Shown piece after piece: positions 14,481-59,312 of a DNA stretch of 64,000 nucleotides (the first letter of the stretch is position 1; each line of letters begins with the position of its first letter). The translations under genes were made by a program, and so were the position numbers. Origin of the DNA: Escherichia coli (GTDB lineage Bacteria > Pseudomonadota > Gammaproteobacteria > Enterobacterales > Enterobacteriaceae); NCBI RefSeq assembly GCF_017348835.2, contig NZ_CP071375.1; one strand, 5' to 3'. The notes below the pieces were generated by a model. That model made no database searches. It saw only the letters and a program-made list of their open reading frames with translations, and was not told where the DNA came from.

Positions 14481-15479
14481 ATGAAACTTTTTCGTATCCT
14501 CGATCCTTTCACCTTAACCCTGATCACGGTGGTGTTGCTGGCCTCTTTCTTTCCGGCCAGAGGCGATTTCGTCCCCTTCTTTGAAAATCTGACCACCGCA
14601 GCTATTGCCCTGCTGTTCTTTATGCACGGCGCGAAGTTGTCGCGTGAGGCGATTATTGCTGGCGGTGGTCACTGGCGACTGCATTTGTGGGTAATGTGCA
14701 GCACCTTCGTGCTGTTTCCGATTCTGGGTGTACTGTTTGCCTGGTGGAAACCGGTAAATGTCGACCCGATGCTCTACTCCGGTTTTCTCTACTTGTGCAT
14801 TCTCCCGGCTACCGTGCAGTCTGCAATCGCCTTCACGTCAATGGCGGGCGGTAACGTCGCGGCGGCGGTTTGTTCTGCGTCGGCATCCAGCCTGCTGGGG
14901 ATTTTCCTTTCACCATTGCTGGTTGGCCTGGTGATGAATGTTCACGGTGCAGGGGGCAGCCTTGAGCAGGTCGGTAAAATTATGCTGCAACTGTTGCTGC
15001 CGTTTGTGTTGGGGCATCTTTCCCGGCCGTGGATTGGTGACTGGGTGTCGCGCAATAAAAAATGGATTGCGAAAACTGACCAGACGTCCATTCTGTTGGT
15101 GGTTTATACAGCGTTCAGCGAAGCCGTCGTTAATGGTATCTGGCATAAAGTTGGCTGGGGATCATTGCTGTTTATCGTGGTGGTCAGCTGCGTTCTTCTG
15201 GCTATCGTGATTGTAGTTAACGTCTTTATGGCACGCCGACTAGGCTTCAATAAAGCAGATGAAATTACTATCGTCTTTTGTGGTTCGAAAAAGAGTCTGG
15301 CAAATGGCATCCCGATGGCAAACATTCTGTTCCCCACATCGGTGATCGGTATGATGGTGCTGCCCCTGATGATTTTCCATCAGATCCAATTGATGGTCTG
15401 TGCGGTGCTGGCGCGGCGATACAAACGCCAGACCGAACAGTTACAGGCACAGCAGGAAAGCAGCACCGATAAAGCTTAA
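14481..15479 (+). CDS. yfeH: bile acid:sodium symporter (BASS)-family membrane protein
   Basis: 332-aa polytopic ORF, divergent from yfeR. Confidence 0.8.
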   Translation: MKLFRILDPFTLTLITVVLLASFFPARGDFVPFFENLTTAAIALLFFMHGAKLSREAIIAGGGHWRLHLWVMCSTFVLFPILGVLFAWWKPVNVDPMLYSGFLYLCILPATVQSAIAFTSMAGGNVAAAVCSASASSLLGIFLSPLLVGLVMNVHGAGGSLEQVGKIMLQLLLPFVLGHLSRPWIGDWVSRNKKWIAKTDQTSILLVVYTAFSEAVVNGIWHKVGWGSLLFIVVVSCVLLAIVIVVNVFMARRLGFNKADEITIVFCGSKKSLANGIPMANILFPTSVIGMMVLPLMIFHQIQLMVCAVLARRYKRQTEQLQAQQESSTDKA

Positions 15480-15694
15480 AGCGGACGCTTCAGGGGCTGG
15501 ACCAGTTGCGTCAGCCCCTCGGTTTTAATCAGCAGCGTGATTTGCATTAGCTCACCGAGCTTCCCTGCCGGGAACTCATCTTTGCGGGCAAACCACAGCA
15601 GATACTCCTCCGGCAGGTCGATTAAGCGACGCCCTTTGTATTTGCCAAACGGCATTATCGTATTGGCTATTTCAATCAGCTGCTCTTTTTCCAT
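15476..15694 (-). CDS. ypeB: DUF3820 small protein
   Basis: ORF 15476..15787 trimmed to MEKEQLIEIANTIMPFGKYKGRRLIDLPEEYLLWFARKDEF... start (ATG complement 15692-15694), directly downstream of ligA. Confidence 0.7.
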   Translation of the reverse strand: MEKEQLIEIANTIMPFGKYKGRRLIDLPEEYLLWFARKDEFPAGKLGELMQITLLIKTEGLTQLVQPLKRPL

Positions 15695-15695
15695 C

Positions 15696-17720
<2,025 letters not shown>

Positions 17721-43577: not shown

Positions 43578-44939
43578 TCAGAAGAACAGTGACGGATCGC
43601 CCGCCCGTTTGGTCAGGCGACCGTTTGCCATAATGCCCATGCTTTCCAGCCAGCGTTCAAACTCCGGTGACGGGCGCAGGTTGAGTAACTGACGCACAGT
43701 GGCGGTATCGTGGAATGCGGTGGTCTGGTAATTGAGCATGATGTCATCACCCAGCGGCATCCCCATGATGTAGTTGCAGCCTGCGGTGGCGAGCAGGATC
43801 ATCAGGTTTTCGTTGAGGTTCTGGTCAGCGTCAGCGTGGTTGGTGTAACAGCAGTCACAGCCCATAGAGATGCCGCTCAGCTTGCCCATAAAGTGATCTT
43901 CTAAGCCCGCACGAATAATCTGGCGGTCATTGTAGAGATACTCCGGCCCAATAAAGCCGACCACGGTGTTGACGATAAACGGATCGTAATGACGCGCCAG
44001 CCCGTAGTTACGCGCTTCCATGGTCACCTGGTCTGCGCCGTAGTTGGCACCCGCCGACAGCGCCGAACCTTGCCCGGTTTCGAAGTAGAGGCAGTTTTCC
44101 CCGGCGATACGGTTGAACTCTGCACCCACTGCGCGCGCTTCGTCGAGCATCGCCAGTTCCACGCCAAACTCTTTCAGCCCTTTTTCACTGCCACAGATAC
44201 TCTGGAAAATCAGCCCGCCTGGTGCGCCACGACGAATCGCTTCGATCTGGGTGGTGACGTGCGCCAGTACGCAGCCCTGAGTTGGGATGTTGAATTTGTC
44301 GATCACGCCATAGATGGTGTCCAGCACGCGGCTTAAGTTTTCCACGTCGTCAGTTACCGGGTTGACGCCGATCACCGCATCGCCCACCCCGAAGGAAAGC
44401 CCTTCGTAGATTTGCGCGGCGATACTTTGCACGTCGTCACGGGTGTCATTTGGCTGCAAACGGGCGCTAAAGGTGCCCGGAATACCGATGGTGGTATTGG
44501 CCTTTTTGATTACCGGCATTTTCTTCGCGCCGTAGATCAGGTCCGCGTTGGAGCAAATCTTCGCTACCGCCGCGACCACTTCCGAGGTCAGCCCTTTGCG
44601 GGTAAAGGCAATGTCGTCCACGCTGGTTTCATCGCTCAGCACATACTCACGCAGTTCGCTGATGCTCCAGTTTTTAATCTGGTTGTAGGCCGTTTCGTTA
44701 ACATCGTCCTGAATCAGCCGCGTCACGCAGTCATCTTCATAGGCAATCACCGGATTATTGCGGATGTCCGCTACGGTCATTTCCGACAACACCTGCTTTG
44801 CTGCCACGCGCTCCTGTGAGCTTGCCGCTGCAACGCCCGCCAGCACATCCCCCGAACGCAGTTCGTTGGCTTTAGCCAGCACCTCTTTTACATCCTTAAA
44901 CTGATATACATTGCCGAACAATGTGGTCTTTAGTTTCAT
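43578..44939 (-). CDS. eutB: ethanolamine ammonia-lyase large subunit
   Basis: ORF trimmed to MKLKTTLFGNVYQFKDVKEV... start (ATG complement 44937-44939), 453 aa. Confidence 0.93.
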   Translation of the reverse strand: MKLKTTLFGNVYQFKDVKEVLAKANELRSGDVLAGVAAASSQERVAAKQVLSEMTVADIRNNPVIAYEDDCVTRLIQDDVNETAYNQIKNWSISELREYVLSDETSVDDIAFTRKGLTSEVVAAVAKICSNADLIYGAKKMPVIKKANTTIGIPGTFSARLQPNDTRDDVQSIAAQIYEGLSFGVGDAVIGVNPVTDDVENLSRVLDTIYGVIDKFNIPTQGCVLAHVTTQIEAIRRGAPGGLIFQSICGSEKGLKEFGVELAMLDEARAVGAEFNRIAGENCLYFETGQGSALSAGANYGADQVTMEARNYGLARHYDPFIVNTVVGFIGPEYLYNDRQIIRAGLEDHFMGKLSGISMGCDCCYTNHADADQNLNENLMILLATAGCNYIMGMPLGDDIMLNYQTTAFHDTATVRQLLNLRPSPEFERWLESMGIMANGRLTKRAGDPSLFF

Positions 44940-45127
44940 AAGTCGTTCCCTCAGGAAGAAGTGATGAGTGACATTTTTCACAGCCTTCAAACAATTCTAT
45001 TTCATCGTTAACCCTTGTCCTGTAAGGTAATTACCTTAGTACGCCCGCTATTCATCCTGCCGAACGCAACCGAACGCGCCGGATACATGAGCGGGGTTAT
45101 CGAGTCGTTAGATCGAGGTATCCGGTT

Positions 45128-46333
45128 TTGAGCAAGACACCACTGACAGCAAAGGCCATAGAGGCCGCACAACCGCAGGACAAGCCCTATAAACTCACCG
45201 ATTCACAGACACCTGGCCTGTTTTTGCTGGTCCATCCCAACGGCAGCAAATACTGGCGATTCCGGTATTGGATAGACAAGAAGGAGCGGTTACAGGCTAT
45301 TGGGGTGTATCCGCTGATTAGCCTCAAGGAAGCCCGCAAACGCGCCACAGAGAGCCGTTTACTGATAGCCCAGGGAATTGACCCAATGGATTTGGCACGC
45401 AAGGAGAAAGCCATTGATGCTCTTAATGCTATCGCCAGTTTTAAAGCTGTAGCAGAAGACTGGATGGCTACCAAGGTGAGCGGATGGAGTGAGAGCTATA
45501 CAAAGCAGGTCAGATCGGCACTAGAGAAAGATGTTTACCCCGTGCTAGGTAAGCGGTCGATAGTGGATATAACGGCCCGTGACGTGCTGGCGTTACTACA
45601 GAAAAAGGAGCGCACCGCACCGGAACAAGCCAGGAAATTACGCCAGCGTATCGGGGAGATCTTCAAATTTGCCGTTATCACTGAACTGGTTAACCGGAAT
45701 CCGGTTGCAGATCTGGATACGGCACTGAAAGCCAGACGCCCAGGCCATAACGCGTGGATACCGATTAATGAAATTCCGGCCTTCTACAAAGCCCTTGAGA
45801 GAGCTGGGAGCGTTCAGATTCAGACGGCAATACTTTTGCTCATCCTCACAGCTTTGAGGACGGCAGAATTGCGCCTGATGCGCTGGGAATGGGTAGATCT
45901 GCAATCGGCAACAATCACATTGCCCGCTGAAGTCATGAAGGCCCGCCGACCGCATGTTGTCCCGCTATCCCGGCAGGCGGTCGAGCTATTACAGGACCAG
46001 TTTACCCGCAGCGGATACAGTGCTTTCGTCTTTCCTGGCCGATTCATGGACAAGCCACTTTCAGCCAGTGCCATCCTTAAAGCCCTGGAGCGTATCGGAT
46101 ACAAGTCGATAGCCACAGGCCACGGCTGGCGGACCACCTTTTCAACGGCGCTTAATGAGTCCGGCAGGTACTCACCAGACTGGATCGAAATCCAACTGGC
46201 CCACGTTCCGAAAGGCGTGCGCGGTGTTTATAACCAGGCGGCCTACCTGAAGCAACGACGGGCCATGATGCAGGATTATAGCGACTGTATTGATTCAATA
46301 CTGGCTGGTGACGGTAATCCACTTGAACCGTGA
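45128..46333 (+). CDS. intZ: P4-type tyrosine integrase
   Basis: 401-aa ORF (TTG start in the ORF track); N-terminal arm-binding-type domain (DKPYKLTDSQTPGLFLLVHPNGSKYWRFRYW), catalytic region with HGWR and terminal ...GVYNQAAYLKQRRAMMQ tyrosine motif. The symbol is assigned by position only. Confidence 0.85.
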   Translation: MSKTPLTAKAIEAAQPQDKPYKLTDSQTPGLFLLVHPNGSKYWRFRYWIDKKERLQAIGVYPLISLKEARKRATESRLLIAQGIDPMDLARKEKAIDALNAIASFKAVAEDWMATKVSGWSESYTKQVRSALEKDVYPVLGKRSIVDITARDVLALLQKKERTAPEQARKLRQRIGEIFKFAVITELVNRNPVADLDTALKARRPGHNAWIPINEIPAFYKALERAGSVQIQTAILLLILTALRTAELRLMRWEWVDLQSATITLPAEVMKARRPHVVPLSRQAVELLQDQFTRSGYSAFVFPGRFMDKPLSASAILKALERIGYKSIATGHGWRTTFSTALNESGRYSPDWIEIQLAHVPKGVRGVYNQAAYLKQRRAMMQDYSDCIDSILAGDGNPLEP

Positions 46334-46884
46334 ACTATAAGGCCGGGTTTATACTCAATATCGACGGTTGAAGCGCTCAAAAAACAACCGTGACAACCGT
46401 CACAAATATGCAATGTCAATGATCTGAATCAATAAATTGCCAATTCTTCGTTTCCACTTTCGAATGAAAGCAAGATGCAGAAAAATAAATCACCATGAAA
46501 TCATGTACTTATTAATTTTGACCAAATGGTCCAAAATATCCTCGGTGAATCCATGCTTGCCACAGCCAGATGATTAATATTTAACCCATGACTTTCGAAT
46601 GAAAGTAAATTGATAAAAAAGTCAGTGTACACTAACTAAATCGAATATTTTTTGCGCTATGTTTGAATGATAATTGAGCAAAACTTTCGCAAGGTGTGAC
46701 GATGTGAGTAATTAATTTTAACTCTACAATAAACCCATCCCGACAGGGATGGTACCTGGAGCGGAGCGAGAGGGACCATCCCCCTGTTTTTAGTCTTTTG
46801 AAGTTAGTTTTTTAAGGGATTAAATAATTTTGCCTCAAATGAGACCACACCATACAAGGCCAAAAACAATCAGTATTGCGTGGA

Positions 46885-47400
46885 TCAGGCTGGTTTTTTA
46901 ACTATATACCCCGTATGCCAAGGATTCTGATCGCGCGGCATCGGGTCCGCCTTGATAGACTCATAAAACTTATCAGCCATCTCAGCCACAAACTGTACAG
47001 AGGATTCGAACTCAGCGTTTTTGTGTGCGGGAGGAAACCAGAAGTCTAACACGCCAGCATTTCTATTTTTACATACAGCGTATATAAGATAAGCATCAGA
47101 TGTAGGGGTAACTTTTTCGAAACCACCGGGACCATAACGACCAGTAGACCAGTCATCCCAGCATTGTTCTGTCCCGCTATAGCCGTACTGATTGGTATAA
47201 AGACCAATATTTACATGGACTTTACGTAAGTGGATAGGATATACACACGGGGGTTTATGGAAAAGAGTATCCTTTCCAAAATCAGGATGATGTCCATATC
47301 TCCAATGATAAATAAACGAATCCTTAAAGCTCTTTAATTCATCGTTTGTTTTAAACTTATTATCACTGTAGACCTTACCAATAAATTCATTCTGGACCAT
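46885..47400 (-). CDS. YafO-like toxin-family protein (putative toxin of a two-gene module)
   Basis: 171-aa ORF from ATG (complement 47398-47400); motifs DFGKDTLF, PIHLRKVHVNIG, SDAYLIYAVCK, FWFPPAHKNAE and VAEMADKF line up with YafO motifs as I recall them (FGRDALY, HIHL, EAHLVYCQG, KPEPHKLA, MAEAF). Confidence 0.5.
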   Translation of the reverse strand: MVQNEFIGKVYSDNKFKTNDELKSFKDSFIYHWRYGHHPDFGKDTLFHKPPCVYPIHLRKVHVNIGLYTNQYGYSGTEQCWDDWSTGRYGPGGFEKVTPTSDAYLIYAVCKNRNAGVLDFWFPPAHKNAEFESSVQFVAEMADKFYESIKADPMPRDQNPWHTGYIVKKPA

Positions 47401-47734
47401 CAAAGCTTACACTCTTTAAGCGTTCTTCTCGTGAATCGAATAAATCTTTTGATAAATCACACGCTTGTGTGAACGTCATTTTTTTTACTCGTGGTACAGC
47501 CATAGGCGAGGCCGCATTCATCACTTTGTTTTCTTCGTGATCGAGAGTAGCAGTGTAGCGAAACATGACACTTTTACCGCGCACCAACTGGTATCCTAGT
47601 CGATACGCTAACGCGTCAAGATGCGTCAGACGATTTGTTTTACGCAAGCCAGTCATAGCTTTTGGCTTACGAGTGCGCACAGAAAGGGATTTCCCTTCTC
47701 GCTTAGTCGCAAACAAAGTAACTATTTTTGACAT
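47387..47734 (-). CDS. small basic protein, putative partner/antitoxin of the downstream toxin-like gene
   Basis: 115-aa ORF from ATG (complement 47732-47734) with GGAGAT RBS; stop lies 10 bp before the downstream gene start; Lys/Arg-rich N-terminus. Confidence 0.45.
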   Translation of the reverse strand: MSKIVTLFATKREGKSLSVRTRKPKAMTGLRKTNRLTHLDALAYRLGYQLVRGKSVMFRYTATLDHEENKVMNAASPMAVPRVKKMTFTQACDLSKDLFDSREERLKSVSFDGPE

Positions 47735-48706
47735 GGTATCTCCTGACATCAATCTGCTAAGGCCATTGTGCCTTGTTTGAATAGTAAACTATTCGCCCAA
47801 TCTACACCAGTGATTTTCTTGACGCCAATAGTAAAGGCAGCATTGCCCACCACAGGCAGACAATGAGACTTCAGATAGCGCACCTTCTATCGCGCACGCG
47901 CTCAATAAAACCAACGACACCGCCATCCTGCCTGACCGATGTTTTTAACCAGCGTATACAGAGAAACAGACAACAGCATGAAATCAGCGTATATCCAGGT
48001 GCAGACGGCACTATCACACAACGCACAGCAGGCTGAGGTGAACACTCAAGCAACTTTATCCCCGCCACCGACCACCGCAAACTATCATGACCGTGCCAAA
48101 TTCAAAAGGAATGGCCCATATAACGCGATGAACACACATAAGCGCTACACTTGCTTACCTGAAAACTTCACAGCGTCACAGCGCGTTTTAGACACGTTAA
48201 AATTAATGAGATTTCATTAAATTTTCACCAGACACCGGAACAAGCCTATAAATCAAAAATGAATTACCGACATGCGCCGCTGGCGTTCACAGGAAGAATC
48301 AATAACTTAGGCCAATGGCGAAAGTTAAACAAAATCAAGAACTTGCAGAAATGCAGGATGAAGCAGCCGATGTGCCCCGTTGGATTTTACCAGAAGAATC
48401 AACAAGTTAGACTCGGTGATTTCACCGACTCCTGCCGGACTACTGACCAGATCGAACCATTCCCCAAATTTGGGGAGAGCAAACCACACGCAGATCCTGC
48501 CAGGCTATTTCATCCCACCGCATCACGTATTTGCACACTTCCCCGCTGACGTGCTCATTTTGATAACGAGTTACCCGCTAGCCCTTGCCACATCACCATT
48601 TGTCGCGCTTTGACTAAATTAGCGACGTGCCTGTTATAGCGATACGCTAGTTATGCAGAAAGCGCGACATATCCAGCAACCATGCACCCTACAGAGGAAT
48701 TGAATC

Positions 48707-49159
48707 ATGCGAGACATAGACTGGTCAGCTATCCCTTTCGATGATTTACCGCCCTGGCATCTGGACTGGGACGTAGACCAACGCGAAAACGCGACATATC
48801 CAGCAACCACCAGCATTACAGCGATGCGCCCCGTAAAGCCTAAGAAATACCAGGCAACCGACCTGATAGCTCACCTCAAAGCTATTGGCGGCGTATTTAC
48901 CGGAAGCAAAGACACGCTTGCACATGAAGTATGGCCCCGGAAGACGCCAGCGGGTCGAACCGTTTTACGCTTACTGACCGAACTGTCAGACAACGGCGAC
49001 GCTGTAGTGATTAACCGTGGTCGTTGTGGCGTGGAAGTTATTCTGACGCCGAAGAACAGGGCACAGACGCCTGAATTAAGCGCACCCAAGCAAATGCATA
49101 GCCAAAAATTAAGTCCAGCAGAACGCGTTATATCGCTTTTAAATGGCATCGGATTTTAA
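48707..49159 (+). CDS. hypothetical island protein
   Basis: 150-aa ORF with GAGGA RBS 8 nt upstream of ATG; no recognisable family. Confidence 0.5.
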   Translation: MRDIDWSAIPFDDLPPWHLDWDVDQRENATYPATTSITAMRPVKPKKYQATDLIAHLKAIGGVFTGSKDTLAHEVWPRKTPAGRTVLRLLTELSDNGDAVVINRGRCGVEVILTPKNRAQTPELSAPKQMHSQKLSPAERVISLLNGIGF

Positions 49160-49185
49160 TTAATTTTGATGTGGTAATTGCAGGC

Positions 49186-49212
49186 AAAAAAATCCCGCCG
49201 GAGAAAGCGGGG
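49186..49212 (-). terminator. rho-independent terminator oriented for minus-strand transcripts
   Basis: Minus strand reads CCCCGCtttctccgGCGGGattttttt (on plus strand the A-run precedes the hairpin). Confidence 0.55.
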
Positions 49213-49446
49213 AAGTGAAATCAATCGTTGTAGTTATAGATCACATTTTGGAGTTGAGGATGGCTAATCCTCGCTAATATTATCGCGCCGTTATGTGATG
49301 GGCGCAATTATTTCTTACTAATTAAAAGTTTTGTAAATATTACAGAATATCCCTTTTCACTATATGGTAAAAGATGTGAAACAGGGACATGAGGAATATA
49401 ATATTAAGTATCAACAGTAATGTTGGTCTTTAATTTCATTCAGGGC

Positions 49447-49489
49447 GCGGTGAGGGTTTTCTCCATATTTTTCCTCACCGCTACTTTTT
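49447..49489 (+). promoter_or_regulatory. terminator/attenuator-like hairpin in the alpA leader
   Basis: GCGGTGAGG-17 nt loop-CCTCACCGC followed by tacttttt, immediately upstream of the alpA RBS. Confidence 0.45.
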
Positions 49490-49501
49490 CGAGGTGAGAA
49501 C

Positions 49502-49693
49502 ATGAATGATAGCGAATTAATGACGGTGAACGAGGTAGCCGCTTTATTCGGCGTTACCCGTCGGACAATATTCCGGTGGATGAACAAGATTAAAGGCTGG
49601 CCCGTCCCGGTCAGTCCGATTGGCTCAAGAATTAAGTTTATCCGATCTGAGATTTTGGAATTCTATAAAAACAAAGGCGCTCGCCACCAATGA
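49502..49693 (+). CDS. alpA: AlpA-family phage/island transcriptional regulator (excision control)
   Basis: 63-aa ORF MTVNEVAALFGVTRRTIFRWMNKIKGWPVPVSPIGSRIKFIRSEILEF: typical AlpA HTH signature; RBS GAGGTGAG. Confidence 0.8.
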   Translation: MNDSELMTVNEVAALFGVTRRTIFRWMNKIKGWPVPVSPIGSRIKFIRSEILEFYKNKGARHQ

Positions 49694-49832
49694 AAACAGC
49701 TACTGAGATTATCAAATAACCTATTGATTTAAAAAGCTAGCTACCGCAATTTCTGAAGGAATAGGCAGCATGAAAATCAAAGCAAACACAATTAAAGAAA
49801 TAACATCAATCAAAGTAAAAGGAGCAGATGCC

Positions 49833-50096
49833 ATGCATTCATTAGATAGTTATTTTCAGCGCACGACAGCCCCTAAATCAGCCGCCCAGGAACGCCGTGA
49901 GGAATTCCAGGAAAAAGTGATGCGTTCTGCTGATTATATTGCGGACAAGTTCGCGGAAACGGTTCGGCCACTTGTTGATGAAGTAGCTGATAAACTTCAG
50001 TCTGAAATGCCGGAAGACATGGAAGGCACTGCAAAGGCGCGACTCCTTTTTGAATTAAGTCGTCGTTTCGGCGTGTCAATAAGCACTTTTAAATAA
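49833..50096 (+). CDS. hypothetical small acidic protein
   Basis: 87-aa ORF from ATG 49833 with AAAGGAG RBS 8 nt upstream. Confidence 0.5.
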   Translation: MHSLDSYFQRTTAPKSAAQERREEFQEKVMRSADYIADKFAETVRPLVDEVADKLQSEMPEDMEGTAKARLLFELSRRFGVSISTFK

Positions 50097-50113
50097 TCGG
50101 AGGAGGAAAGACA

Positions 50114-50656
50114 ATGGACGCATTTGATGTACTGACAAACAAAGGCGATGAACTGGTAGCACAGCGTGATAAAACCGCCAACGAAGGGGAACGCGCACTG
50201 TTAAATAAGCAGATTAAAGCGATCCGTATGGCCCAGTTTAAATTAATCAGCAATGAAGTTATCGAAAAAATTAAACCGCAGATCCCACAAATCGTTGCTG
50301 ACGCTATTAAAGCCGCCGGACTGGAGAAACGCATTGCCGGGCTGAAAACGAACGCAGAGAAAATGGAGATGCACAAACAGAGCGGTGCTCCGACTCCGGA
50401 TGAGTACTTCTCACCGGATGCTGAGTTTATGGCGCAGGTTGAGGAACGTCTGGGTAGCTGTCTCACCGAGGAACAGTGTCGCTATTTTGATGGAGTGGAT
50501 AGTTCGGCAGGTATTGACCTGAACTCGTATTTCGGTCGTGAAATTGAGCATTTTGATGCCGCCCCGTCTATGCCGGAGCCAGAACCAGAAATGGCCGCCG
50601 ATCCTGAAGCTGAGCAACGGAAACGCGTATTCAATGCGATAGGGATTCGGTACTGA
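50114..50656 (+). CDS. hypothetical protein (phage-associated)
   Basis: 180-aa ORF with strong GGAGGAGG RBS; acidic C-terminus. Confidence 0.55.
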   Translation: MDAFDVLTNKGDELVAQRDKTANEGERALLNKQIKAIRMAQFKLISNEVIEKIKPQIPQIVADAIKAAGLEKRIAGLKTNAEKMEMHKQSGAPTPDEYFSPDAEFMAQVEERLGSCLTEEQCRYFDGVDSSAGIDLNSYFGREIEHFDAAPSMPEPEPEMAADPEAEQRKRVFNAIGIRY

Positions 50657-50664
50657 TCGGATAA

Positions 50665-50688
50665 AAGAAAGCCGGGAATTACCCCGGC
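50665..50688 (-). terminator. hairpin terminator, T-tract on the minus strand
   Basis: GCCGGGaattacCCCGGC preceded on plus strand by ataaaagaaa (minus strand: hairpin then tttcttttat). Confidence 0.45.
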
Positions 50689-50707
50689 TGACTTAACAAT
50701 GTGACCA

Positions 50708-51082
50708 ATGAACAAATCGGACAAGACAAACAGGATAAGCAGTCTCGAAACAATGTTCGGGAACTATATTAGCACAAGTCCGGAGAAAATCATCATGTTG
50801 GCACTACGCATCATGCAGGGCATCGCTAAGACCCTCGCAGAACATGTCTTAGACCTGAAACATTCGCCACTGAGCAAACAGGCCATGAAGCGCCAAACGC
50901 TTCGTCTGTGGGCTGAATATTCGCTTGGAACTATCAATAAAATCATCGACATGAAATCGGGGCCGAGCAACCAGAGCGCGGAGGAAATGGAGTTCATCAG
51001 GCGTTTAATTCTCATTCGCAGAGACATTCATAGCCAGTTACACAGCGTGGGAATCGATATTAATGATGGGACGGGCGATTAA
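50708..51082 (+). CDS. hypothetical protein
   Basis: 124-aa ORF; weak RBS. Confidence 0.45.
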   Translation: MNKSDKTNRISSLETMFGNYISTSPEKIIMLALRIMQGIAKTLAEHVLDLKHSPLSKQAMKRQTLRLWAEYSLGTINKIIDMKSGPSNQSAEEMEFIRRLILIRRDIHSQLHSVGIDINDGTGD

Positions 51083-51120
51083 TTTTCGGACAAGTACTAT
51101 GCGCGCGCGAGGAGCTGAAC

Positions 51121-51351
51121 ATGAAGCAAGATATTGCAGACAGGCTGGAGATACTCGAAGGCCAGCGGGCAGAAGCGAAACAACTACGTAAGCAGGCCAG
51201 AAGAGCGCACAGGAACTACGAAGCAGAATCACTGACCGCTTTCATCAACTTCACAAACCGTTGCATCCTGGAGTGTTACAGGGAGGATGCAGAAAACTGG
51301 CTGGATTCATTGCCAGAACAGACTCTGCATGAACTGAACGGCGACCAGTAA
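51121..51351 (+). CDS. hypothetical small protein
   Basis: 76-aa ORF with GAGGAG RBS 6 nt upstream. Confidence 0.5.
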   Translation: MKQDIADRLEILEGQRAEAKQLRKQARRAHRNYEAESLTAFINFTNRCILECYREDAENWLDSLPEQTLHELNGDQ

Positions 51352-51638
51352 ATAAATCCAGTACGTTTCCCGCAGTGCGCATAACGTACATTATGTGAAA
51401 AACGATATGGATATATATCAGTCTGACTTCAATGAAGAAAACGGACTTCCAGCATCAACCACAAAGAAGTATGGCTAATGCAGCTTTATAAGCCATTGAT
51501 TCTATTAAACGATATTTTTTGTGATTGGTTGAAGCAAACCAAAACACGATGCCACTGAAGCGTTAATAAACTGTTTCAATGTGAAATTATCAGAGTAAAG
51601 AACAATTTGGAGGGTCCGCAAACGCGGATAACAATATC

Positions 51639-53819
51639 ATGAGTGGAAATCTCGGGACCATATACTACGAGGTCGATGCCCGCACTGGGAAACTTCTTAT
51701 CGCGCAACAGCAGGCGGAAGAGGCGTTCGATCGCATTGAACGAGGAGCGCGGAAGGCTGATAGCGGCGTCAAAAAGTTAAATACGCAGATGACTAAAACA
51801 TCAGCCGCAGTCAAAACCAACCTTTCCCCGGCAATCCGTAACGCATCATACCAGATCGCAGACCTTGCCACTCAATTGCAGATGGGCGGTAATGCGCTTC
51901 AGGCGTTCGCTGTGCAGGGTGCGCAGTTATTAGCTGGCTTTGGCACGATGGGCGCGGTAGCTGGCGCGGTGCTGGCTATCGCTGGCGCTATGGGTGGAAG
52001 CCTGGCACAAGGCGCTGATAGTGCAGCCGGATCGGTTGAGTATCTGGACAAGGCGATCACCAAACTGAACGAGGTCATAGCTGTAAATGAACAGGGCGTG
52101 ACGGTGATGAGTGATAGTTACGCCAGACTTTCTAAGGTTAACGCTGAAGTAGCGAAACAGATGCGGAACATGGCTGAAATTCAGGCAATTGCAGCACTGC
52201 GTGACCTGAAAGAACAGGCAAGCCAGGCACAGGGGGAAATGTCGTCATTCTGGCGCAGCTTGCAGGGTGGTAAAGCTGACGCAGCAGCAGCAGCACAGGC
52301 ACTTGATGATCTTGGAATCACAACCAACGACTACAAAGAGGCGATAGCCATACTGAACGCCAATCAGCCGGATACACAGGCGCAAATGGCAACGCTAGCT
52401 AAGTCCGTGATGTACATAGGCGAGGAATACAACCTGACAAACCAGCAAGCCTACGAGTTCATCCGAGCACTAAATAGGGCCGCGACAACGAGAACGCCGG
52501 AAGCCATGCAGGAACTATCGGGCTTCATGCAGGTATTGCTACAGGACACCGAAAACGGTAACGAGGCATTCCGTGAACTGGCTATCAAATTCGTTGATGC
52601 ACAAACCAAAGGCGCAATGCTGGAAGACCAACTAAACCGACTGAAAGGCGCTATCAGTGACGCAGCCACAGAAGCCAGAAACGCCAATTTTACCACTATG
52701 CTCAACACCGTCGCCGCACGCCTGGCAGCCATTGAGCAAGGTTGGGAGGCAGGCGTTAGGATGCAGATGAAAGCCCAGGGCTACACTGAAGAGCAGATCG
52801 ATGAATATGTGAACATGGAAACGGCGTACCGTGATGCAAAAGCCGCTTTGGACGAGAAGAATAAGGCCGACCGTGAAGCTATTGCGCTATCCAAACGCCA
52901 GGCCGCAGAAGCAGCCCGCAAGGCAAAACAGGAAGAAGCTGAAGCACAACGCAAGGCCAAACAGTTAGCCGCGCAGAAGGAGCAGGCAGGACGCTTTACG
53001 CAGCAAGTAATGACGGAATACCTGACGACCGTAGATCCGGCAACAGGCAAGGCGTTTAACCCTGCCGCACAAGTAGAAATGCAGGAGCAGCAGAAGAAAG
53101 CGGCGCTGGATAAATACAGACAGTTGGGCGTCCTGGATGAACAGCAGTACCAGAACACGCTAACCGCCATCCAGAAAACCGCGTCAATGCGCCGCCAGCA
53201 AATCATCAAAGACGAGGCCGACACGTTATTCAACAATCAGCAACAGTTGATCGGCACATTTGGCGATTTCTTCGGTGAACTGTCTGGAGTCATAGCAGAC
53301 GGTGCAGGTGAGCAAAACGCGGCATATCAAGCGCTATTTGCTGTGCAGAAGGGTTTTGTATTGGCATCAGCAGCTTTAAGCCTTCAGAAAGCGCTTGCTG
53401 AGGCAAACGCCTTGCCTTTCCCGGCTAATCTTCCGGCCTATGCGCAAGCTATGTCAGCAGGCACGCAGATCATTTCAGCTATTCGTGGAATAGCTTTCGG
53501 TGGCGGACGCTACAACGGCGGCGCGGTTGGTGCTGGCAACCTGTACCGCGTGGGTGAACACGGTAAGCCTGAGATATTCAAGGCGAACAATGGCAGCCAG
53601 TACATGATCCCAGGTGATAACGGTCGCGTGATAAGTAATCGTGACATTGGCGGCGGTGGCGGCGTAACAATCAACAGCCCGATCACCATTAACACTACGA
53701 ATGGCTTCAGTGATGAAGACTCAAGGCGTCTTGAGGAAGCGATGAAGCGCGTAGCTATGGGCGTTTGCAGGCAGGAGTCAACCAGACCGGGAGGAATGTT
53801 AGCCCCGCGCCGTCGTTAA
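51639..53819 (+). CDS. phage tail tape-measure-like protein
   Basis: 726-aa ORF: glycine/alanine-rich hydrophobic segment (LLAGFGTMGAVAGAVLAIAGAMGGSLAQGADSAAG), long A/Q/E/K-rich coiled-coil middle, C-terminal G-rich region with YRVGEHGKPE motif. Confidence 0.7.
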   Translation: MSGNLGTIYYEVDARTGKLLIAQQQAEEAFDRIERGARKADSGVKKLNTQMTKTSAAVKTNLSPAIRNASYQIADLATQLQMGGNALQAFAVQGAQLLAGFGTMGAVAGAVLAIAGAMGGSLAQGADSAAGSVEYLDKAITKLNEVIAVNEQGVTVMSDSYARLSKVNAEVAKQMRNMAEIQAIAALRDLKEQASQAQGEMSSFWRSLQGGKADAAAAAQALDDLGITTNDYKEAIAILNANQPDTQAQMATLAKSVMYIGEEYNLTNQQAYEFIRALNRAATTRTPEAMQELSGFMQVLLQDTENGNEAFRELAIKFVDAQTKGAMLEDQLNRLKGAISDAATEARNANFTTMLNTVAARLAAIEQGWEAGVRMQMKAQGYTEEQIDEYVNMETAYRDAKAALDEKNKADREAIALSKRQAAEAARKAKQEEAEAQRKAKQLAAQKEQAGRFTQQVMTEYLTTVDPATGKAFNPAAQVEMQEQQKKAALDKYRQLGVLDEQQYQNTLTAIQKTASMRRQQIIKDEADTLFNNQQQLIGTFGDFFGELSGVIADGAGEQNAAYQALFAVQKGFVLASAALSLQKALAEANALPFPANLPAYAQAMSAGTQIISAIRGIAFGGGRYNGGAVGAGNLYRVGEHGKPEIFKANNGSQYMIPGDNGRVISNRDIGGGGGVTINSPITINTTNGFSDEDSRRLEEAMKRVAMGVCRQESTRPGGMLAPRRR

Positions 53820-54317
53820 CCAAATCCCACGCCAGGGGGATAGACTGGCGGCCTTTCAATTCCGTTGAAACGACGGAATCAAACACCCCGATTCAGGGTA
53901 TTTAAACGTCGCGTTTCACGACATTTATCTAAGTCATTGATTTATATTGTAACTCATAATTGAGTTGCGCCGACCATCCCGCCACAAACGCTCCTACGCA
54001 AAAATTCCCTCACAATTACCCTGCCAATTTTCCAGATTTCACGTATACGCGCCTATATCCCCGCCACCGGATACACGCCCGCTTATACCGGATACTTTTA
54101 TGCCATCATTATTAAATCCATTAATAATCATCAAACCATAATTAGCACAACTTATAATCGAACAAAAAACACACAACATTGATAATGATTTTTTCTGGTT
54201 ATACTTATCTAAAAAAGTGGTATGGGAAGTAACTTATTGTTTTGTAATTACAAATTTATTGCGTGGTCAGATGAACAGACTTGCGCACCTCCCGAAAAAC
54301 ACGCGAAAATCGAAGTG

Positions 54318-54427
54318 TTCTTTCTTTTTTTGTTTTTTATTTTTTTATTTTCTCTTTTTCTTCTCTTTCCGGTTCTCTTCTTTTTCTGGTTTTGGTTTTT
54401 TCCTTTTTTATTTTTATTCTTTCTTCA
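54318..54427. repeat. polypyrimidine (T/C) low-complexity tract
   Basis: ~110 bp almost exclusively T and C on the plus strand (tctttctttttttgttttttatttttttattttctc...). Confidence 0.9.
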
Positions 54428-54572
54428 GGGTTGTGATCAAACACACCAAAACATTTTCGCCACAAAAGCGTTAATTTCATCCTGCCAGACCATTCACTTT
54501 CACCGGATACACAGCCGGATATAATCCCGCTAACACCCAGCCACCCAGCATCACGCCTGATAACTACCGTAT

Positions 54573-55976
54573 TCAGGAAGGAAATGCGAGTGATTTCACC
54601 GTCACCGGCACAACCGATCCGCCAAAAAGAGGCGTACCAATGTCGATATAGTCCCCCGCGCGGACAATCACTTCGTCAATGACTGCCAACGGGAGTTGTT
54701 GTAGCTGTGGGCGCAACAACATGCCCAGAGCTTTACCAAAGTCCTGCCCGGCCACCACCAGCAGGGGATGCGGATTCGGAAAACGCGCGACGAAATCGAC
54801 CAACGCGTTGATGACCGTCAGTACCGCGGCGTAACGCACAGGCAGCGAGGCGGGAAGCGCCAGCACGTACGCGTCAGTTTTGGGATCAAGATCCAGCTGA
54901 ATCAGCGCCTGTTGCCAGGCACTCACCAGATCCGTTTCATCAATCGGGATCGCCACCGGCAAATTGCGCAGCGGCAGTTGTACGCCCTCCAGCCAGATTG
55001 TGCTGCCAGAGAGCGAAAGGGTATGTGCACCCGCGCCAATCACCGTGGCGCGTACGGTTTGCGCCGGAAACTGCACGTTCATCTCACGCAGGCGCGGATG
55101 GTCATGCAGCGCCGTTGCCAGAAGCGGGCCAATATCGGCAAAACAGAACGGGTCGGCGGGCTGGTGGCGATAACATTCGCCCACGCCGCCAGAAAGCGTA
55201 ATGATTTCGGGCGTAACACCTGCGGGCAGCAAACCGGTTTGCATTAATGCCTGCGCGAGCGGCGAAAGCGTTCCGTCAATCACTTCGACAATCAGCTCTG
55301 CCATCCGCCAGGTAACCTGCACCAGCTGCGCGCCGGTCAGCGAACGGGCGTCGGTGCCTGCGCCGAAGCACTCATCCACAATCATCTGCCCCGGTTTATG
55401 AGCGTAAACCACGCGCCCCTGGCTGTCGGTTTCCAGCAGGCGACCACCGACGTTGAGGCAGGCAGTGCCGCTGATTTTTCCGGCATCGAACAGGGCGTAG
55501 TTCGCGGTGCCACCGCCGATGTCGATATTCAGTACCCGACACAGCCGTTGTTCAGAAAGGGTTTGCGCCCCGGCACCGTGACCGGCGATCACGGATTCGA
55601 GGTGCGGCCCGGCGCTGGCGACGACAAAATCGCCCAGCGACTGAGAGAGCGCCATCACCGCCGGGCGAGCATTGCGGGTTTTCGCGCTTTCACCGGTGAT
55701 GATGATGGCACCAGAATCAACGCTTTCCGGCGCAATGCCCGCAGCCTGATATTGCTCTAAAATCAGCGATTTCAGTTCCGCTTCTTTTAAACCACCCTGT
55801 TTATCGACAGGGGTAAAGAACACCGGGCTTTGCCAGCTAATTTCGCGTTTGATGAATTCGTAGCGCGGCACCTGCGACACCGCCGCACGGTTAACCAGTT
55901 CCAGGTGGGAGAAAATCACCTGGGTGGTGGTGGTGCCGATATCGATACCGACGCTCAGTAGCTGGCGAGTGTTCAC
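54573..55976 (-). CDS. eutA: ethanolamine ammonia-lyase reactivating factor
   Basis: 467-aa ORF ending ...VTVKSLAFPS; operon context. Confidence 0.9.
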   Translation of the reverse strand: MNTRQLLSVGIDIGTTTTQVIFSHLELVNRAAVSQVPRYEFIKREISWQSPVFFTPVDKQGGLKEAELKSLILEQYQAAGIAPESVDSGAIIITGESAKTRNARPAVMALSQSLGDFVVASAGPHLESVIAGHGAGAQTLSEQRLCRVLNIDIGGGTANYALFDAGKISGTACLNVGGRLLETDSQGRVVYAHKPGQMIVDECFGAGTDARSLTGAQLVQVTWRMAELIVEVIDGTLSPLAQALMQTGLLPAGVTPEIITLSGGVGECYRHQPADPFCFADIGPLLATALHDHPRLREMNVQFPAQTVRATVIGAGAHTLSLSGSTIWLEGVQLPLRNLPVAIPIDETDLVSAWQQALIQLDLDPKTDAYVLALPASLPVRYAAVLTVINALVDFVARFPNPHPLLVVAGQDFGKALGMLLRPQLQQLPLAVIDEVIVRAGDYIDIGTPLFGGSVVPVTVKSLAFPS

Positions 55977-57199
55977 GATTGTGCCTCCGCTTCGGTTTTA
56001 GCCGCGGTCGCGTCGTCTTTTGGCACCAGCATCATCGCCACGCCAATCGCCGTTACGCCGCCGATCAACTTGCCGACAATCATCGGGAAGATCATGGCAT
56101 TCATGTTGGCAGCGGCGAAGCCTAAGTGGTCGCCCAGGGCGAAAGCAGCGGAAACGGCGAAGGCGCAGTTGATGACTTTGCCGCGGGTATCCATCTGCTT
56201 CATCATGCCGAACATCGGGATGTTGTTGGCAAGCGTTGCCACCATGCCGGCTGCCGCGATGTTGTTCATATTCAGCACTTTACCGACGCTCATCAGCGGT
56301 TTTTCAAACCAGCGGGTCAGCAGCAGCACCATTGGATACGCCCCTAACAGAACGCAGGAGATAGAACCGATAACTTCAATGGCGCGCATCACCTCACCGG
56401 GTTTATCGCCAGGGGCCATAAAGATAGGATCCAGACCGGGGATCAGTTCCCAGCCAAGCAGGAATTTCACTACCGCAGCGGCAAGACCGAGGGTGATCAA
56501 TGCAACGAGGAATTTGGCGAAGATCTGGAAGCCGTTGATCATTTTTTCCGGGATGAATTTCAGCCCCAGCGCCACCAGAATCGCAACAATGATCACCGGG
56601 ATCATGTTCATCAGGATCAGGGCGAAAGTGAATTCCACCGGCTGGCCGTTGATCTGAACACCGGAGTACATAGCTACCAGACCACCAGCGATACAACCAA
56701 TCGGAATGGTCACAATGCCCGCCAGCACGCCGAGCGCCAGATAACGACGGTCAGAAGGTTCGATAATGCCGAGCGCCACCGGAATGGAAAACACAATCGT
56801 TGGCCCCATCATCGACCCGAGAATTAACCCAGAGTATAGCCACGCTGCTACGTCGCCGCCCGCCAGCTCTTTGGCGAGGAAGAAGCCGCCCATATCGCAC
56901 GCCAGCAGCGTTCCGGCGAACATTGACGGGTTTGCGCCGAGCATTTCGTAAACCGGGATAATTACCGGCCCGAGTACGTGAGCCAGTACCGGTGCCAGCG
57001 CGGTCATACCGACCATCGCCAGACCCAGAGCGCCCATTGCCATAAAGCCTTCTTCGAACTGACCGCCTGATCCTTCGATACTTTTACCGAACTTACCGAG
57101 GAAACGAGCAGAACCGCCGAACTGTGACAGGATCCTGTCTACGGCAGCTATCAGCATAAAGAACATCATGATGTACATGATGATTTCGTTAATTCCCAT
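55973..57199 (-). CDS. eutH: ethanolamine permease / facilitator
   Basis: 408-aa polytopic membrane ORF. Confidence 0.9.
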   Translation of the reverse strand: MGINEIIMYIMMFFMLIAAVDRILSQFGGSARFLGKFGKSIEGSGGQFEEGFMAMGALGLAMVGMTALAPVLAHVLGPVIIPVYEMLGANPSMFAGTLLACDMGGFFLAKELAGGDVAAWLYSGLILGSMMGPTIVFSIPVALGIIEPSDRRYLALGVLAGIVTIPIGCIAGGLVAMYSGVQINGQPVEFTFALILMNMIPVIIVAILVALGLKFIPEKMINGFQIFAKFLVALITLGLAAAVVKFLLGWELIPGLDPIFMAPGDKPGEVMRAIEVIGSISCVLLGAYPMVLLLTRWFEKPLMSVGKVLNMNNIAAAGMVATLANNIPMFGMMKQMDTRGKVINCAFAVSAAFALGDHLGFAAANMNAMIFPMIVGKLIGGVTAIGVAMMLVPKDDATAAKTEAEAQS

Positions 57200-57298
57200 C
57201 GCCTTTACTCCCTGTTAGTTGTTATTTATTAGCGGATGCTGCGTGAAGCCTTATCCGCACTACATGTGCAATCCCACAGACCGGATAAGACGCGGCAT

Positions 57299-58486
57299 TT
57301 ATTGCGCCGCCGCGTACAGGCCGACAATCTGTTCCAGGCTGGCGGTACGCGGGTTGCTGCGCAGACAAATATCTTCCTGCGCGGCCTGCGCCCATGCACC
57401 GTAATGCGCAGATGTCGCGCCAACATCGCCCAGTCGTTTACCAATCCCAACTTCCGCAATCAGCTCACTTACCGCGTTAATAGCGTCACGATCGTCGGAT
57501 TTTTTAGTTCGCAGTGCCCGACCAATCTGACTAAAGCGTTCGCGACATACCATCCGGTTAAACTCCATCACCGTTGGCAGCAACATAGCGTTCGCCAGAC
57601 CGTGCGGAATATGCAGCGCCGCGCCCGGCTGATGCGCCATCGCGTGGCACAACCCAAGACCCGCACTGGAAAACGCCATTCCCGCCATACATGAAGCCAG
57701 CAACATGCTCTCGCGCGCGGCAAGGTCGTGACCGTAGCCCACCGCTTTCGGCAGCGATTTGCCAATCATCGCAATGGCACCAATCGCCAGACTGTCGGTA
57801 AACGGTGTAGCGTTCAGGGCGCTGTATGCTTCAATGGCATGGGTTAACGCATCAATGCCGGTCATCGCCGTGACATGCGACGGCACACCTTCGGTCAATG
57901 CGGCGTCGAGGATCGCCACATCCGGCATCAGCGAGGCATGGGCTAACACCTGCTTGCGCCCGCTCACCGCGTCGATAATCACCGTTACATTGGTGGTTTC
58001 AGAGCCGGTTCCGGCGGTAGTTGGAATGGCAATCAGCGGCAAGCGCGGTTGCAGAACGCTGGTTTCTGACATCTCTGCCAGCGTGCTATCCGGGTTCGTC
58101 ACCAGCAACGCCACGGCTTTCGCCGCATCCAGCACCGAGCCGCCGCCAAATGCGATCACCCCGTCACAACCTGACTCACGCAACTGCGCCACGGCTGCAC
58201 ACACGTCGGTAATGCACGGTTCGCCCACCGGACATGGCCAGAGCGTCATGGCGATACCTTTAACGGCCAGGCTACGCGTCAGCCCGGCGGTCATCCCTGC
58301 CTGATGCAAAAAGCTGTCTGCCATCACGAACAGATGTTTCAGCCCACGCGTTTGCGCTTGCTGTCCGCAACTGCTCACCGAGCCCGGACCGCAAAGCGTC
58401 ACCGGTGGAACGCTAAATGTTTTTACCCGTTGCAGATTCAGGGTATCGAACGCCTGAAAGAGCGCGGTCTGCAATTCATTTTGCAT
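57299..58486 (-). CDS. eutG: iron-containing alcohol dehydrogenase
   Basis: ORF trimmed to MQNELQTALFQAFDTLNL... (ATG complement 58484-58486). Confidence 0.88.
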   Translation of the reverse strand: MQNELQTALFQAFDTLNLQRVKTFSVPPVTLCGPGSVSSCGQQAQTRGLKHLFVMADSFLHQAGMTAGLTRSLAVKGIAMTLWPCPVGEPCITDVCAAVAQLRESGCDGVIAFGGGSVLDAAKAVALLVTNPDSTLAEMSETSVLQPRLPLIAIPTTAGTGSETTNVTVIIDAVSGRKQVLAHASLMPDVAILDAALTEGVPSHVTAMTGIDALTHAIEAYSALNATPFTDSLAIGAIAMIGKSLPKAVGYGHDLAARESMLLASCMAGMAFSSAGLGLCHAMAHQPGAALHIPHGLANAMLLPTVMEFNRMVCRERFSQIGRALRTKKSDDRDAINAVSELIAEVGIGKRLGDVGATSAHYGAWAQAAQEDICLRSNPRTASLEQIVGLYAAAQ

Positions 58487-59312
58487 ATAGCCCCTCCGCT
58501 TTCTCTCGCCCACTACTGGCGATTGCCAGCGGGGTCATAAACAAACTGTGCTGCGGTAAATGCACCTGTAACGCCGGGAATTGTTTGCGAAACAGTTCCG
58601 CCACGCCCGGTTGCATACAAGAGCCGCCCGCCAGCCATAAATCAGTAATGCCCTGCCCTTCAATATGCCGGGCGACAATGTCCGCCATTTTTTCGTACAC
58701 CGGTTTCACCGCAGGCCAAATCTCTTCACCGTGACCGCGCTTGTACTGCTCCGCCTCTTCCAGCGAAATACGGCGATTTCCGGCGAGAGTCAGAGAGATG
58801 TGATGTCCGCCGGTGGCTTCATCCGCCGAGTACGTCACTTTGCCCTTTTTCACGATGGCAATGCCGGTAGTGCCACCGCCGATATCCACTACGCCTGCGT
58901 TATCCAGTTGCAGTAGATCCGCGACTGCGGTTGGCTCATCCAGCACATGGCTCACTTCCAGCCCGGCAGACTCCAGCACGTTGATGGAAATACGCGGGTC
59001 CGTACCTGGAGGAAATGAAGTCGCCGCATGGCTAAAACGACGACCGAATTGCTGCTCGAGCGTGTCGAGATGGCGACGAACAATGGTGACCGCGCCGAAG
59101 AAATCCCAGACGATGCCGTCGCGGACCACATCGGCCCAGTCGAGGCATACCGCCACCGGCTGACCGTCGCGGTCGACAACCATCGACACCACATCGCAGG
59201 TGCCCAGATCCACCCCCAGCCACAGCGGAGATTCCGTCGCGGCGGGCGTCTGGTTACACAGCGTTGCCGCCGTTTGCAGACGTGGGGTGAGCCATTGTTC
59301 GTCGTGCGCCAT
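58476..59312 (-). CDS. eutJ: DnaK/actin-fold chaperone-like protein
   Basis: 278-aa ORF with DLGTCD / DIGGGTTG ATPase motifs. Confidence 0.9.
   Translation of the reverse strand: MAHDEQWLTPRLQTAATLCNQTPAATESPLWLGVDLGTCDVVSMVVDRDGQPVAVCLDWADVVRDGIVWDFFGAVTIVRRHLDTLEQQFGRRFSHAATSFPPGTDPRISINVLESAGLEVSHVLDEPTAVADLLQLDNAGVVDIGGGTTGIAIVKKGKVTYSADEATGGHHISLTLAGNRRISLEEAEQYKRGHGEEIWPAVKPVYEKMADIVARHIEGQGITDLWLAGGSCMQPGVAELFRKQFPALQVHLPQHSLFMTPLAIASSGREKAEGLYAK

Follow-up and report, generated by a model that had tools for sequence, protein, structure and literature searches.

A putative capsid-interference operon in CPZ-55-type islands of Escherichia coli

Four small genes and the islands that carry them

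In the window, a 64,000-nucleotide stretch of the E. coli chromosome (contig NZ_CP071375.1) that is 100% identical to strain PE164, the intergenic site between eutB and eutA holds a 9.4-kb integrase island that splits the eut operon. The insertion site is shared with the K-12 cryptic prophage CPZ-55. The island carries four small open reading frames, ORF1–ORF4, which are the subject of this analysis and lie co-oriented on the plus strand between alpA and a gene for a homologue of phage tape-measure proteins (Table 1). A sequence-only reading of the stretch had described four such ORFs with good Shine-Dalgarno sequences. The ORFs and the sequences quoted for them were confirmed, whereas the size of 124 aa given to ORF3 was not. 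ORF3 is 95 aa long because its homologues of 91–100 aa start at the Met at 50795, this Met has GGAG 9 nt upstream, and the Prokaryotic Genome Annotation Pipeline (PGAP) agrees; the start at 50708 has no Shine-Dalgarno sequence. For ORF1, the 87-aa start fits homologues of 87–90 aa, and the 108-aa start given by PGAP in the source strain is probably over-extended.

Table 1. Coordinates of the island, its genes and its chromosomal flanks in the window
Feature	Position	Strand	Remarks
eutB	43578-44990	minus	Left chromosomal neighbour of the island
Candidate attL core, TTCATCCTGCC	45051-45061		Adjoins eutB; exact 11-mer recurs at 54476
intZ-type tyrosine integrase, 401 aa	45128-46333	+	phrog_1, E 8e-69; PGAP name intZ
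YafO-family type II toxin gene; overlapping upstream ORF	46885-47403; 47387-47752	minus	Island cargo
150-aa hypothetical protein upstream of alpA	48707-49159	+	No family match; identical protein in L014
AlpA/excisionase-type helix-turn-helix protein	49502-49693	+	phrog_66, E 2e-9
ORF1, 87 aa	49833-50096	+	Acidic; Shine-Dalgarno AAAGGAG; pN/pS 0.28-0.41
ORF2, 180 aa	50114-50656	+	Shine-Dalgarno GGAGGAGG; pN/pS 0.36-0.48
SGAPTPDEYF, ORF2 residues 90-99 (TPDEYF, 94-99)	50381-50410	+	Like phage TGAPNPDEYFK
RYFDG (residues 123-127) and IDLNSYF (134-140) in ORF2	50480-50533	+	Additional copies of the D-hydrophobic-x-x-Y-F motif; similar to the mEp021 tail PDINNYFA
Hairpin in the ORF2-ORF3 gap (138 nt)	50670-50689		G+C-rich; T-run, terminator-like, on the minus strand only
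ORF3, 95 aa, YffM family	50795-51082	+	Basic; most widely conserved core gene; start corrected from 50708 (124 aa)
ORF4, 76 aa	51121-51351	+	Shine-Dalgarno GAGGAG; pN/pS 0.13-0.42; L005 homologue 61% identical
Tape-measure protein homologue, 726 aa	51639-53819	+	phrog_1538, E 3e-103
Candidate attR core, TTCATCCTGCC	54476-54486		Adjoins eutA; right island boundary
eutA	54573-55976	minus	Right chromosomal neighbour of the island
Candidate attP core of the circularised island, ATTCATCCTGCC			

The four ORFs are real genes under purifying selection. Ratios of non-synonymous to synonymous change (pN/pS, Nei-Gojobori method) were 0.13–0.48 against alleles of 90–98% identity and 0.4–0.75 against alleles of 26–60% identity, and because these ratios are low and the gene order is conserved in many islands, the ORFs are expressed, selected genes rather than chance reading frames. 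Among 5426 complete E. coli genomes, 234 carry the segment, in each case on the chromosome.

Database searches placed the genes in no known family. Profiles from PHROGs, NCBIfam, PADLOC and Pfam (the last searched with a concatenated query) gave no match to any of the four ORFs, among them no defence profile; AlpA alone matched the Mad1 helix-turn-helix profile of PADLOC. Sequence-profile searches of PDB gave chance-level matches only, fold searches of BFVD with ORF3 and ORF2 returned nothing below E 0.03, and 50,697 phage genomes contained zero blastn or tblastn matches to the ORFs even at E <= 1. A phmmer search with the concatenated ORFs against 1.84 billion representatives yielded 42 matches, nearly all of them E. 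coli or Shigella fragments, and ORF2 found 28 proteins in a set of 5.8-billion clusters; those with a named source all came from E. coli or Shigella bar one Salmonella fragment. Because the profile, PDB, protein and phage-genome searches were null in this respect, ORF1–ORF4 do not belong to the usual structural or chaperone genes of phages; the profile matches to such proteins that the sequence-only reading had suggested looking for were found for none of them. Compared across families with hhalign, ORF1, ORF3 and ORF4 were unrelated to TerS, to YffP or to one another, and ORF2 had only weak links to two other island protein families, f112 and f89 (probability 43–63%), via a shared motif described below. 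Two further similarities, of ORF4 to the TerS C-terminus (E 0.048) and of ORF3 to the Rz-like protein of phage mEp021 (E 0.002 in 170 sequences), were dropped as coiled-coil noise.

The genes were followed through twelve islands at two attachment sites. The backbone consists of the integrase, variable cargo, AlpA, in some islands an HNH_3-type endonuclease, ORF1, ORF2, in some f112 and f57, ORF3/YffM, and in some f89; then come an Sf6-type small terminase, TerS (YffO family), a YffP-like protein, a HK97-gp10/Neck1 protein, the tape-measure protein and a few helix-turn-helix proteins. The full layout is found at the eut site in strains Ceylon31, 2012C-4431 and ampC_0069 and, with an unrelated integrase, inside ychJ in APEC E14033. 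ORF1, ORF2 and YffM stand between AlpA and the TerS, gp10 and tape-measure genes in 12/12 intact sister islands, and diverged alleles (26–60% identity) keep the same order at both chromosomal sites. Since the triad of ORF1, ORF2 and ORF3 is invariant while its flanks vary, it is backbone and not cargo.

Within the triad, ORF1 is a core gene that is always paired with ORF2, with homologues at the same position in all 12 islands, and its product is probably helical. ORF3 belongs to the YffM family (37% identity to K-12 YffM over 68 aa, BLASTP E 1e-9) and usually lies just upstream of the island TerS; AlphaFold2 predicts a confident three-helix bundle (predicted local distance difference test, pLDDT, 91) with generic structural neighbours only. 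ORF4 is an accessory gene, found in only five of the islands examined (the window island, L004, L005, L011 and L012); the L005 copy lies immediately before gp10/Neck1 and the tape-measure gene. In a protein from another strain, P0020, residues 1–50 of ORF4 continue in frame into the C-terminal ~70 residues of the tape-measure protein; this deletion variant shows that the island arm is still decaying.

Genes for a portal, a large terminase, a capsid protein, a major tail protein or lysis are missing from all 12 islands. In the complete islands (L013–L016) the tape-measure gene follows HK97-gp10/Neck1 in the absence of major-tail or chaperone genes, and islands of the L007/L008 type combine ORF1–ORF3 homologues and a small terminase with no tape-measure gene. 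The tape-measure gene occurs in 72/5426 E. coli genomes, and all eight contexts inspected were islands, none of them a prophage. Sister islands, including that of K-12 (YffO), carry the Sf6-type TerS. The K-12 cryptic prophage CPZ-55 is probably a decayed member of this island family. It shares the site, an integrase 91% identical to that of the window (IntZ) and a YffM homologue, and its YffO and YffP families recur in sister islands. It keeps YffM, YffO (TerS-like) and YffP and has lost ORF1 and ORF2; unlike the window island it also has no ORF4 or tape-measure gene, and its YffM is N-terminally shortened.

The tail motif of ORF2 and candidate helper phages

The AlphaFold2 model of ORF2 has a helical hairpin over residues 1–90 (pLDDT 81–95), and the remainder (pLDDT < 65) is modelled as a disordered acidic tail. 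Recurring in this tail is the motif D-hydrophobic-x-x-Y-F, usually with Pro before it; most diverged ORF2 alleles have two to five copies of it, and that of L008 has one. The motif is also found in the island proteins f112 (KTPDINSYF; C-terminal APDFNSYFD) and f89 (C-terminal NVPDFNTYF), which may be ORF2 paralogues.

A scan of candidate helper phages located the motif at the extreme C-terminus of a single protein, a member of phrog_760 represented by mEp515_73 (GEVPDFNTYF) and mEp021_54 (KPATPDINNYFA), and the VPDFNTYF with which f89 ends is identical to the C-terminus of mEp515_73. Such a tail is kept by 93 of 120 phage phrog_760 homologues, one clade of which ends in TGAPNPDEYFK. Aligned ungapped with that ending, the SGAPTPDEYF of ORF2 scores 49 (BLOSUM62) against a shuffle mean of 21 (standard deviation 3.3; z 8.5), a score reached by 0/2000 shuffles. 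The same test gave z = 6.6–8.5 for f112, f89 and another ORF2 allele and background scores for the negative controls ORF1, ORF3, ORF4, TerS and YffP. When the small island proteins were compared with 170 helper ORFs, the phrog_760 protein was the sole reproducible match; tblastn with the SGAPTPDEYF region matches the scaffold-like C-terminus in the E. coli lambdoid-type prophage L019; and a hidden Markov model (HMM) of the scaffold domain ranked members of the ORF2, f89, f112 and ORF1 families at the top of a 491-sequence decoy set. A possible motif copy near the N-terminus of ORF1, LDSYF, was not significant in the shuffle test and was discarded. Reading the YF motif as similar to beta-clamp-binding or single-stranded-DNA-binding protein (SSB) tails was likewise dropped, given the identical peptide at the C-terminus of the phage protein in the scaffold slot.

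The phrog_760 protein has 421–423 aa and is encoded between a MuF-like head-morphogenesis gene and the decoration and major-capsid genes, where a scaffold or protease-scaffold fusion would be expected. Its last third is rich in Ala, Glu and Lys and, from this composition, likely helical. The mEp021 record, which includes a proteome by mass spectrometry, does not flag it as a virion protein.

Other island genes point to the same group of phages. The island gp10 gene shows 74–81% nucleotide identity over 90–150 nt to the mEpimmI coliphages, and its protein is 45–48% identical to mEp021_59. In the island tape-measure protein the N-terminal ~80 aa are 50% and the C-terminal ~107 aa 60–71% identical to the tape-measure proteins of mEp021 and mEp515, and the middle is different; for the window homologue the two ends give 50–65%. 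The island TerS belongs to the Sf6_terminase family (HMM E 1e-17), which it shares with the TerS of the mEp phages and of prophage L019. Phage taxa with phrog_760 homologues largely mirror those with tape-measure homologues. The mEpimmI phages, temperate siphoviruses whose heads measure ~60 nm and whose tails measure ~130 nm, are common in human stool, where they and their relatives are reported to be as common as lambdoid phages (PMC11893012).

Other features of the window island and its relatives

From left to right the window island contains intZ, the YafO-family toxin gene and its partner on the opposite strand, the 150-aa protein, AlpA, ORF1–ORF4 and the tape-measure homologue, with a gap of 287 nt between the last two. 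An 11-bp direct repeat, TTCATCCTGCC (45051 and 54476), flanks it. The repeat is a candidate attachment-site (att) core because the same pair also brackets two relatives, L002 and L015. The assignment of AlpA agrees with the PGAP name "AlpA family" in sister strains and a match of Pfam Phage_AlpA to the L006 homologue, and AlpA presumably activates the downstream operon. Rfam has no match on the island. The island genes run opposite to the eut operon (43578–58513 with the island in it). Presence or excision of the island could affect ethanolamine utilisation. At its right end, beside eutA, there is a pyrimidine-rich (T/C) low-complexity tract (54319–54434), across which PGAP calls a 47-aa minus-strand ORF that is probably spurious.

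The YafO-family toxin is a cargo common to several sister islands and lies on the strand opposite to ORF1–ORF4; the ORF that overlaps it upstream is a probable antitoxin. The 150-aa protein is weakly similar to YffS (E 0.035) and may be a winged-helix regulator or a remnant of an initiator. Two direct-repeat pairs lie just upstream of this ORF and into it, at 48267–48410 (44 nt, 75% identity, spacing 100 nt) and 48658–48809 (25 nt, 96% identity, spacing 127 nt), and could be operator or iteron-like sites. The hairpin between ORF2 and ORF3 may mark a deletion scar or an antisense terminator, because sister islands have f112 and f57 at that position.

Gene content also varies among the relatives. 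Between alpA and ORF1, some of the otherwise collinear islands contain an HNH_3-type endonuclease gene (L002 11601–11996, L004 9238–9633, L005 8986–9570, L006 1788–2294) and others do not, a pattern like that of a homing-endonuclease insertion and unlike a packaging HNH. In strain YJ6 (L011 11238–14278) and in L012, the arm with TerS and the tape-measure gene has given way to a truncated glutamate-decarboxylase gene, a gadC-like antiporter, a murI-like racemase and IS1, a cargo that is acid-resistance-like. L005 encodes a cyclophilin-type peptidyl-prolyl isomerase (11384–11875) just before ORF4, gp10 and the tape-measure gene, a position of note because genome injection by HK97 reportedly requires both the tape-measure protein of that phage and a chaperone of the periplasm. 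In the complete island L016, the right end (15079–15714) encodes a 211-aa protein with a weak match to the head-scaffolding family phrog_8865 (E 1e-4).

A proposed satellite function and its alternatives

We see an even chance that ORF1–ORF4 form the end nearest AlpA of an operon for capsid hijack or interference in a satellite family that resembles phage-inducible chromosomal islands (PICIs) and is inserted at eutA/eutB or ychJ. Satellite-type helper interference was one of several functions entertained in the sequence-only reading, and it is now favoured by the resemblance of the ORF2 tail to a scaffold C-terminus together with the apparently helper-derived TerS, gp10 and tape-measure genes. 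By analogy with the CpmB protein of SaPI1, we propose that ORF2 is a competing scaffold or other interferer with capsid assembly, acting as a multivalent mimic of the scaffold tail. In such a scheme, entry of the helper into lytic growth would lead AlpA to switch the operon on. ORF2 would then self-associate, probably through its N-terminal helical hairpin and for example as a dimer, and its tail motifs would occupy the scaffold-binding site of the helper capsid protein. The outcome could be redirected assembly, with small capsids for an element of 9–13 kb, blocked assembly of the helper, or both. ORF1 and ORF3 are placed in the same assembly or packaging step because both always accompany ORF2, ORF3 possibly acting with the adjacent TerS, and ORF4 would be an accessory tied to the tail-interior module. 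A wider proposal, which we hold more tentatively, is that CPZ-55-type islands form an undescribed class of satellites that parasitise mEp021-like siphophages, and phages with the same head module, in two ways: by multivalent scaffold-tail mimicry through ORF2, f112 and f89, with tail variants matched to helper lineages, and by substitution of their own small terminase, tail-completion and tape-measure proteins.

Several observations count against this interpretation. First, the resemblance of ORF2 to a scaffold is strong at the level of sequence only in the short motif. Its helices match the scaffold-like domain weakly (hhalign probability 21%; best E 9e-4, from a small database), and the motifs in ORF2 are internal, not C-terminal. 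Second, the scaffold role of the phrog_760 protein is a putative one, suggested by gene position and composition, and the protein finds no match in Pfam, NCBIfam or PDB; phage records label it "hypothetical", "coat protein" or "prohead core protein". Third, ORF1, ORF3 and ORF4 carry no functional clue of their own, and we infer the function of the operon, as we do the scaffold role of the phrog_760 protein, the binding of capsid protein, control by AlpA and any packaging. Fourth, the window island has neither TerS nor gp10 and is probably a reduced derivative, left with interference as the sole activity that it could still exert. The commonest variant sampled (YJ6 type) keeps AlpA and ORF1–ORF4 but has a metabolic block where TerS and the tape-measure gene would stand, a layout equally compatible with pure interference and with satellite transfer. 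Finally, no replication gene was identified in the window island or its relatives, where proteins left of alpA in L007 and L010 gave weak DnaD_N and HTH_36 matches only; IMG/VR viral contigs contain no relative of ORF2, the only ORF searched there; and the head modules of the candidate helpers are rare as prophages, with 35 and 7 of 5426 genomes positive by megablast.

Because the window island looks reduced in this way, a serious alternative, which we nevertheless hold to be clearly less likely, is that the operon is a stand-alone anti-phage system which poisons capsid assembly of mEp021-like phages by scaffold mimicry and protects the host population, the island itself being unpackaged. The window island and the YJ6-type variant are without TerS and gp10, and the latter also without a tape-measure gene, yet ORF1–ORF4 are intact and under purifying selection in them, and assembly-blocking defences on mobile elements are documented in Tai (PMC11364771) and Tab (PMC10884400). 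Against this, the triad of complete relatives is flanked by homologues of TerS, gp10 and the tape-measure protein from one and the same phage lineage, which would be odd for pure defence; PADLOC gave no match, and AlpA-linked PICI operons serve the satellite cycle. Defence or anti-defence cargo, another function considered in the sequence-only reading, is unlikely since the genes are invariant backbone, the true cargo is what varies (YafO, the gadC/murI-like block) and PADLOC found no defence profile in them.

Less probable still is a module for replication, maintenance or regulation, in which the ORFs would be initiator accessories, anti-repressors or transcription modulators at the position of the PICI pri-rep genes. 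The interval between alpA and terS in PICIs often holds replication genes, no other replication gene is identified in the island, and ORF3 is a basic helical bundle. However, the ORFs lack any signature of DNA binding or of a primase, helicase or initiator, iterons are absent from the four genes and their immediate flanks, and the motif of ORF2 points specifically to a head-assembly protein.

That the locus is merely a decayed prophage, in which ORF2 would be what is left of a scaffold gene, the adjacent ORFs junk and the tape-measure gene stranded, is very improbable. ORF2 is weakly similar to the C-terminal third of the phage protein and the K-12 element is annotated as a cryptic prophage, but each of the four ORFs has a proper start signal and a pN/pS far lower than 1, their order is kept in alleles of 26–60% identity at two sites, the motif has been multiplied and spread over three protein families, and all 12 islands are devoid of the portal, TerL, capsid, major-tail and lysis genes of a prophage. 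Non-canonical tail-assembly chaperones for the island tape-measure protein, which the sequence-only reading had suggested from gene position, with a search for a programmed frameshift between the 124- and 76-aa ORFs as a check, can be set aside almost entirely: position upstream of a tape-measure gene that has no gpG/GT pair of its own is the only likeness to phage gpG/gpGT, and ORF3 has no slippery heptamer (XXXYYYZ), ORF4 has its own Shine-Dalgarno sequence and ATG in a frame that is not open across the overlap (stops at 51031, 51061 and 51064; closed until 15 nt before the ORF3 stop), no ORF is homologous to a chaperone family, and ORF1–ORF3 occur in islands without a tape-measure gene and are separated from it by TerS, YffP and gp10 in complete ones.

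Among known systems, the interference operon proposed here comes closest to one in Gram-positive satellites. CpmB of SaPI1 is a small helical dimer encoded ahead of terS in a satellite operon. Its C-terminus repeats the RIIK motif found in the 80alpha scaffold, and CpmB vies with that scaffold for one site on the capsid protein and alters capsid size (PMC5644958). Like CpmB (with CpmA), ORF2 combines a helical N-domain with copies of the C-terminal peptide of a helper protein. Unlike CpmB, it is found in a Gram-negative host, the putative helper scaffold is a 421-aa protein of protease/scaffold type, and in place of RIIK there are two to five copies of D-hydrophobic-x-x-Y-F, internal as well as terminal and spread over ORF2, f112 and f89. 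There is no homology to CpmB in Pfam, PHROG or PDB sequence searches or in BFVD fold searches, and any resemblance would be functional or convergent. The satellite-encoded external scaffolds P4 Sid and PLE TcaP also reportedly redirect helper capsid assembly (PMC7552001, PMC10002752). These proteins act outside the shell, in contrast to mimicry of an internal scaffold tail, and have no relation in sequence or fold to the ORFs.

In overall design the islands resemble Gram-negative PICIs of the EcCICFT073 and EcCIMP1 type, in which AlpA is the helper-induced master activator (PMC11773190). They measure 9–13 kb, have an integrase at the left end and AlpA just before a co-oriented operon, and as complete islands carry a terS homologue and variable cargo and no capsid or lysis genes. 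They differ in that no primase or replicase was detected, in that none of the small core proteins is related to a known PICI gene, and in that they carry tape-measure and HK97-gp10/Neck1 genes for the tail interior, where SatelliteFinder treats tail genes as forbidden. The literature searched contained no paper that ties CPZ-55 or the yff genes to satellites or proposes a function for them, and no description of a satellite with a tape-measure gene. The competing-scaffold class of mechanism is already known; novelty lies in the island family, in the motif and its multivalency, and in the genes for the tail interior.

In conclusion, a conserved block of small E. coli genes is associated with AlpA, with relatives of siphophage packaging and tail genes, and with a repeated peptide found at the end of a phage protein in the scaffold slot. 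If the satellite interpretation is true, these islands would be the first known satellites with genes for parts of the tail interior, and a whole family would be missed by satellite finders that forbid tail genes. Scaffold competition, structurally shown so far only for SaPI1 CpmB, would extend to Gram-negatives in a multivalent form. The orphan gene block, including relatives of yffM, yffO and yffP, would gain a function, and a long-known "cryptic prophage" of K-12 would be reclassified as a decayed satellite. With a candidate helper group named, the system would be directly testable in K-12 with existing phages. The eut operon is split in hundreds of E. coli genomes, and the mobility of the island bears on the use of ethanolamine in the gut.

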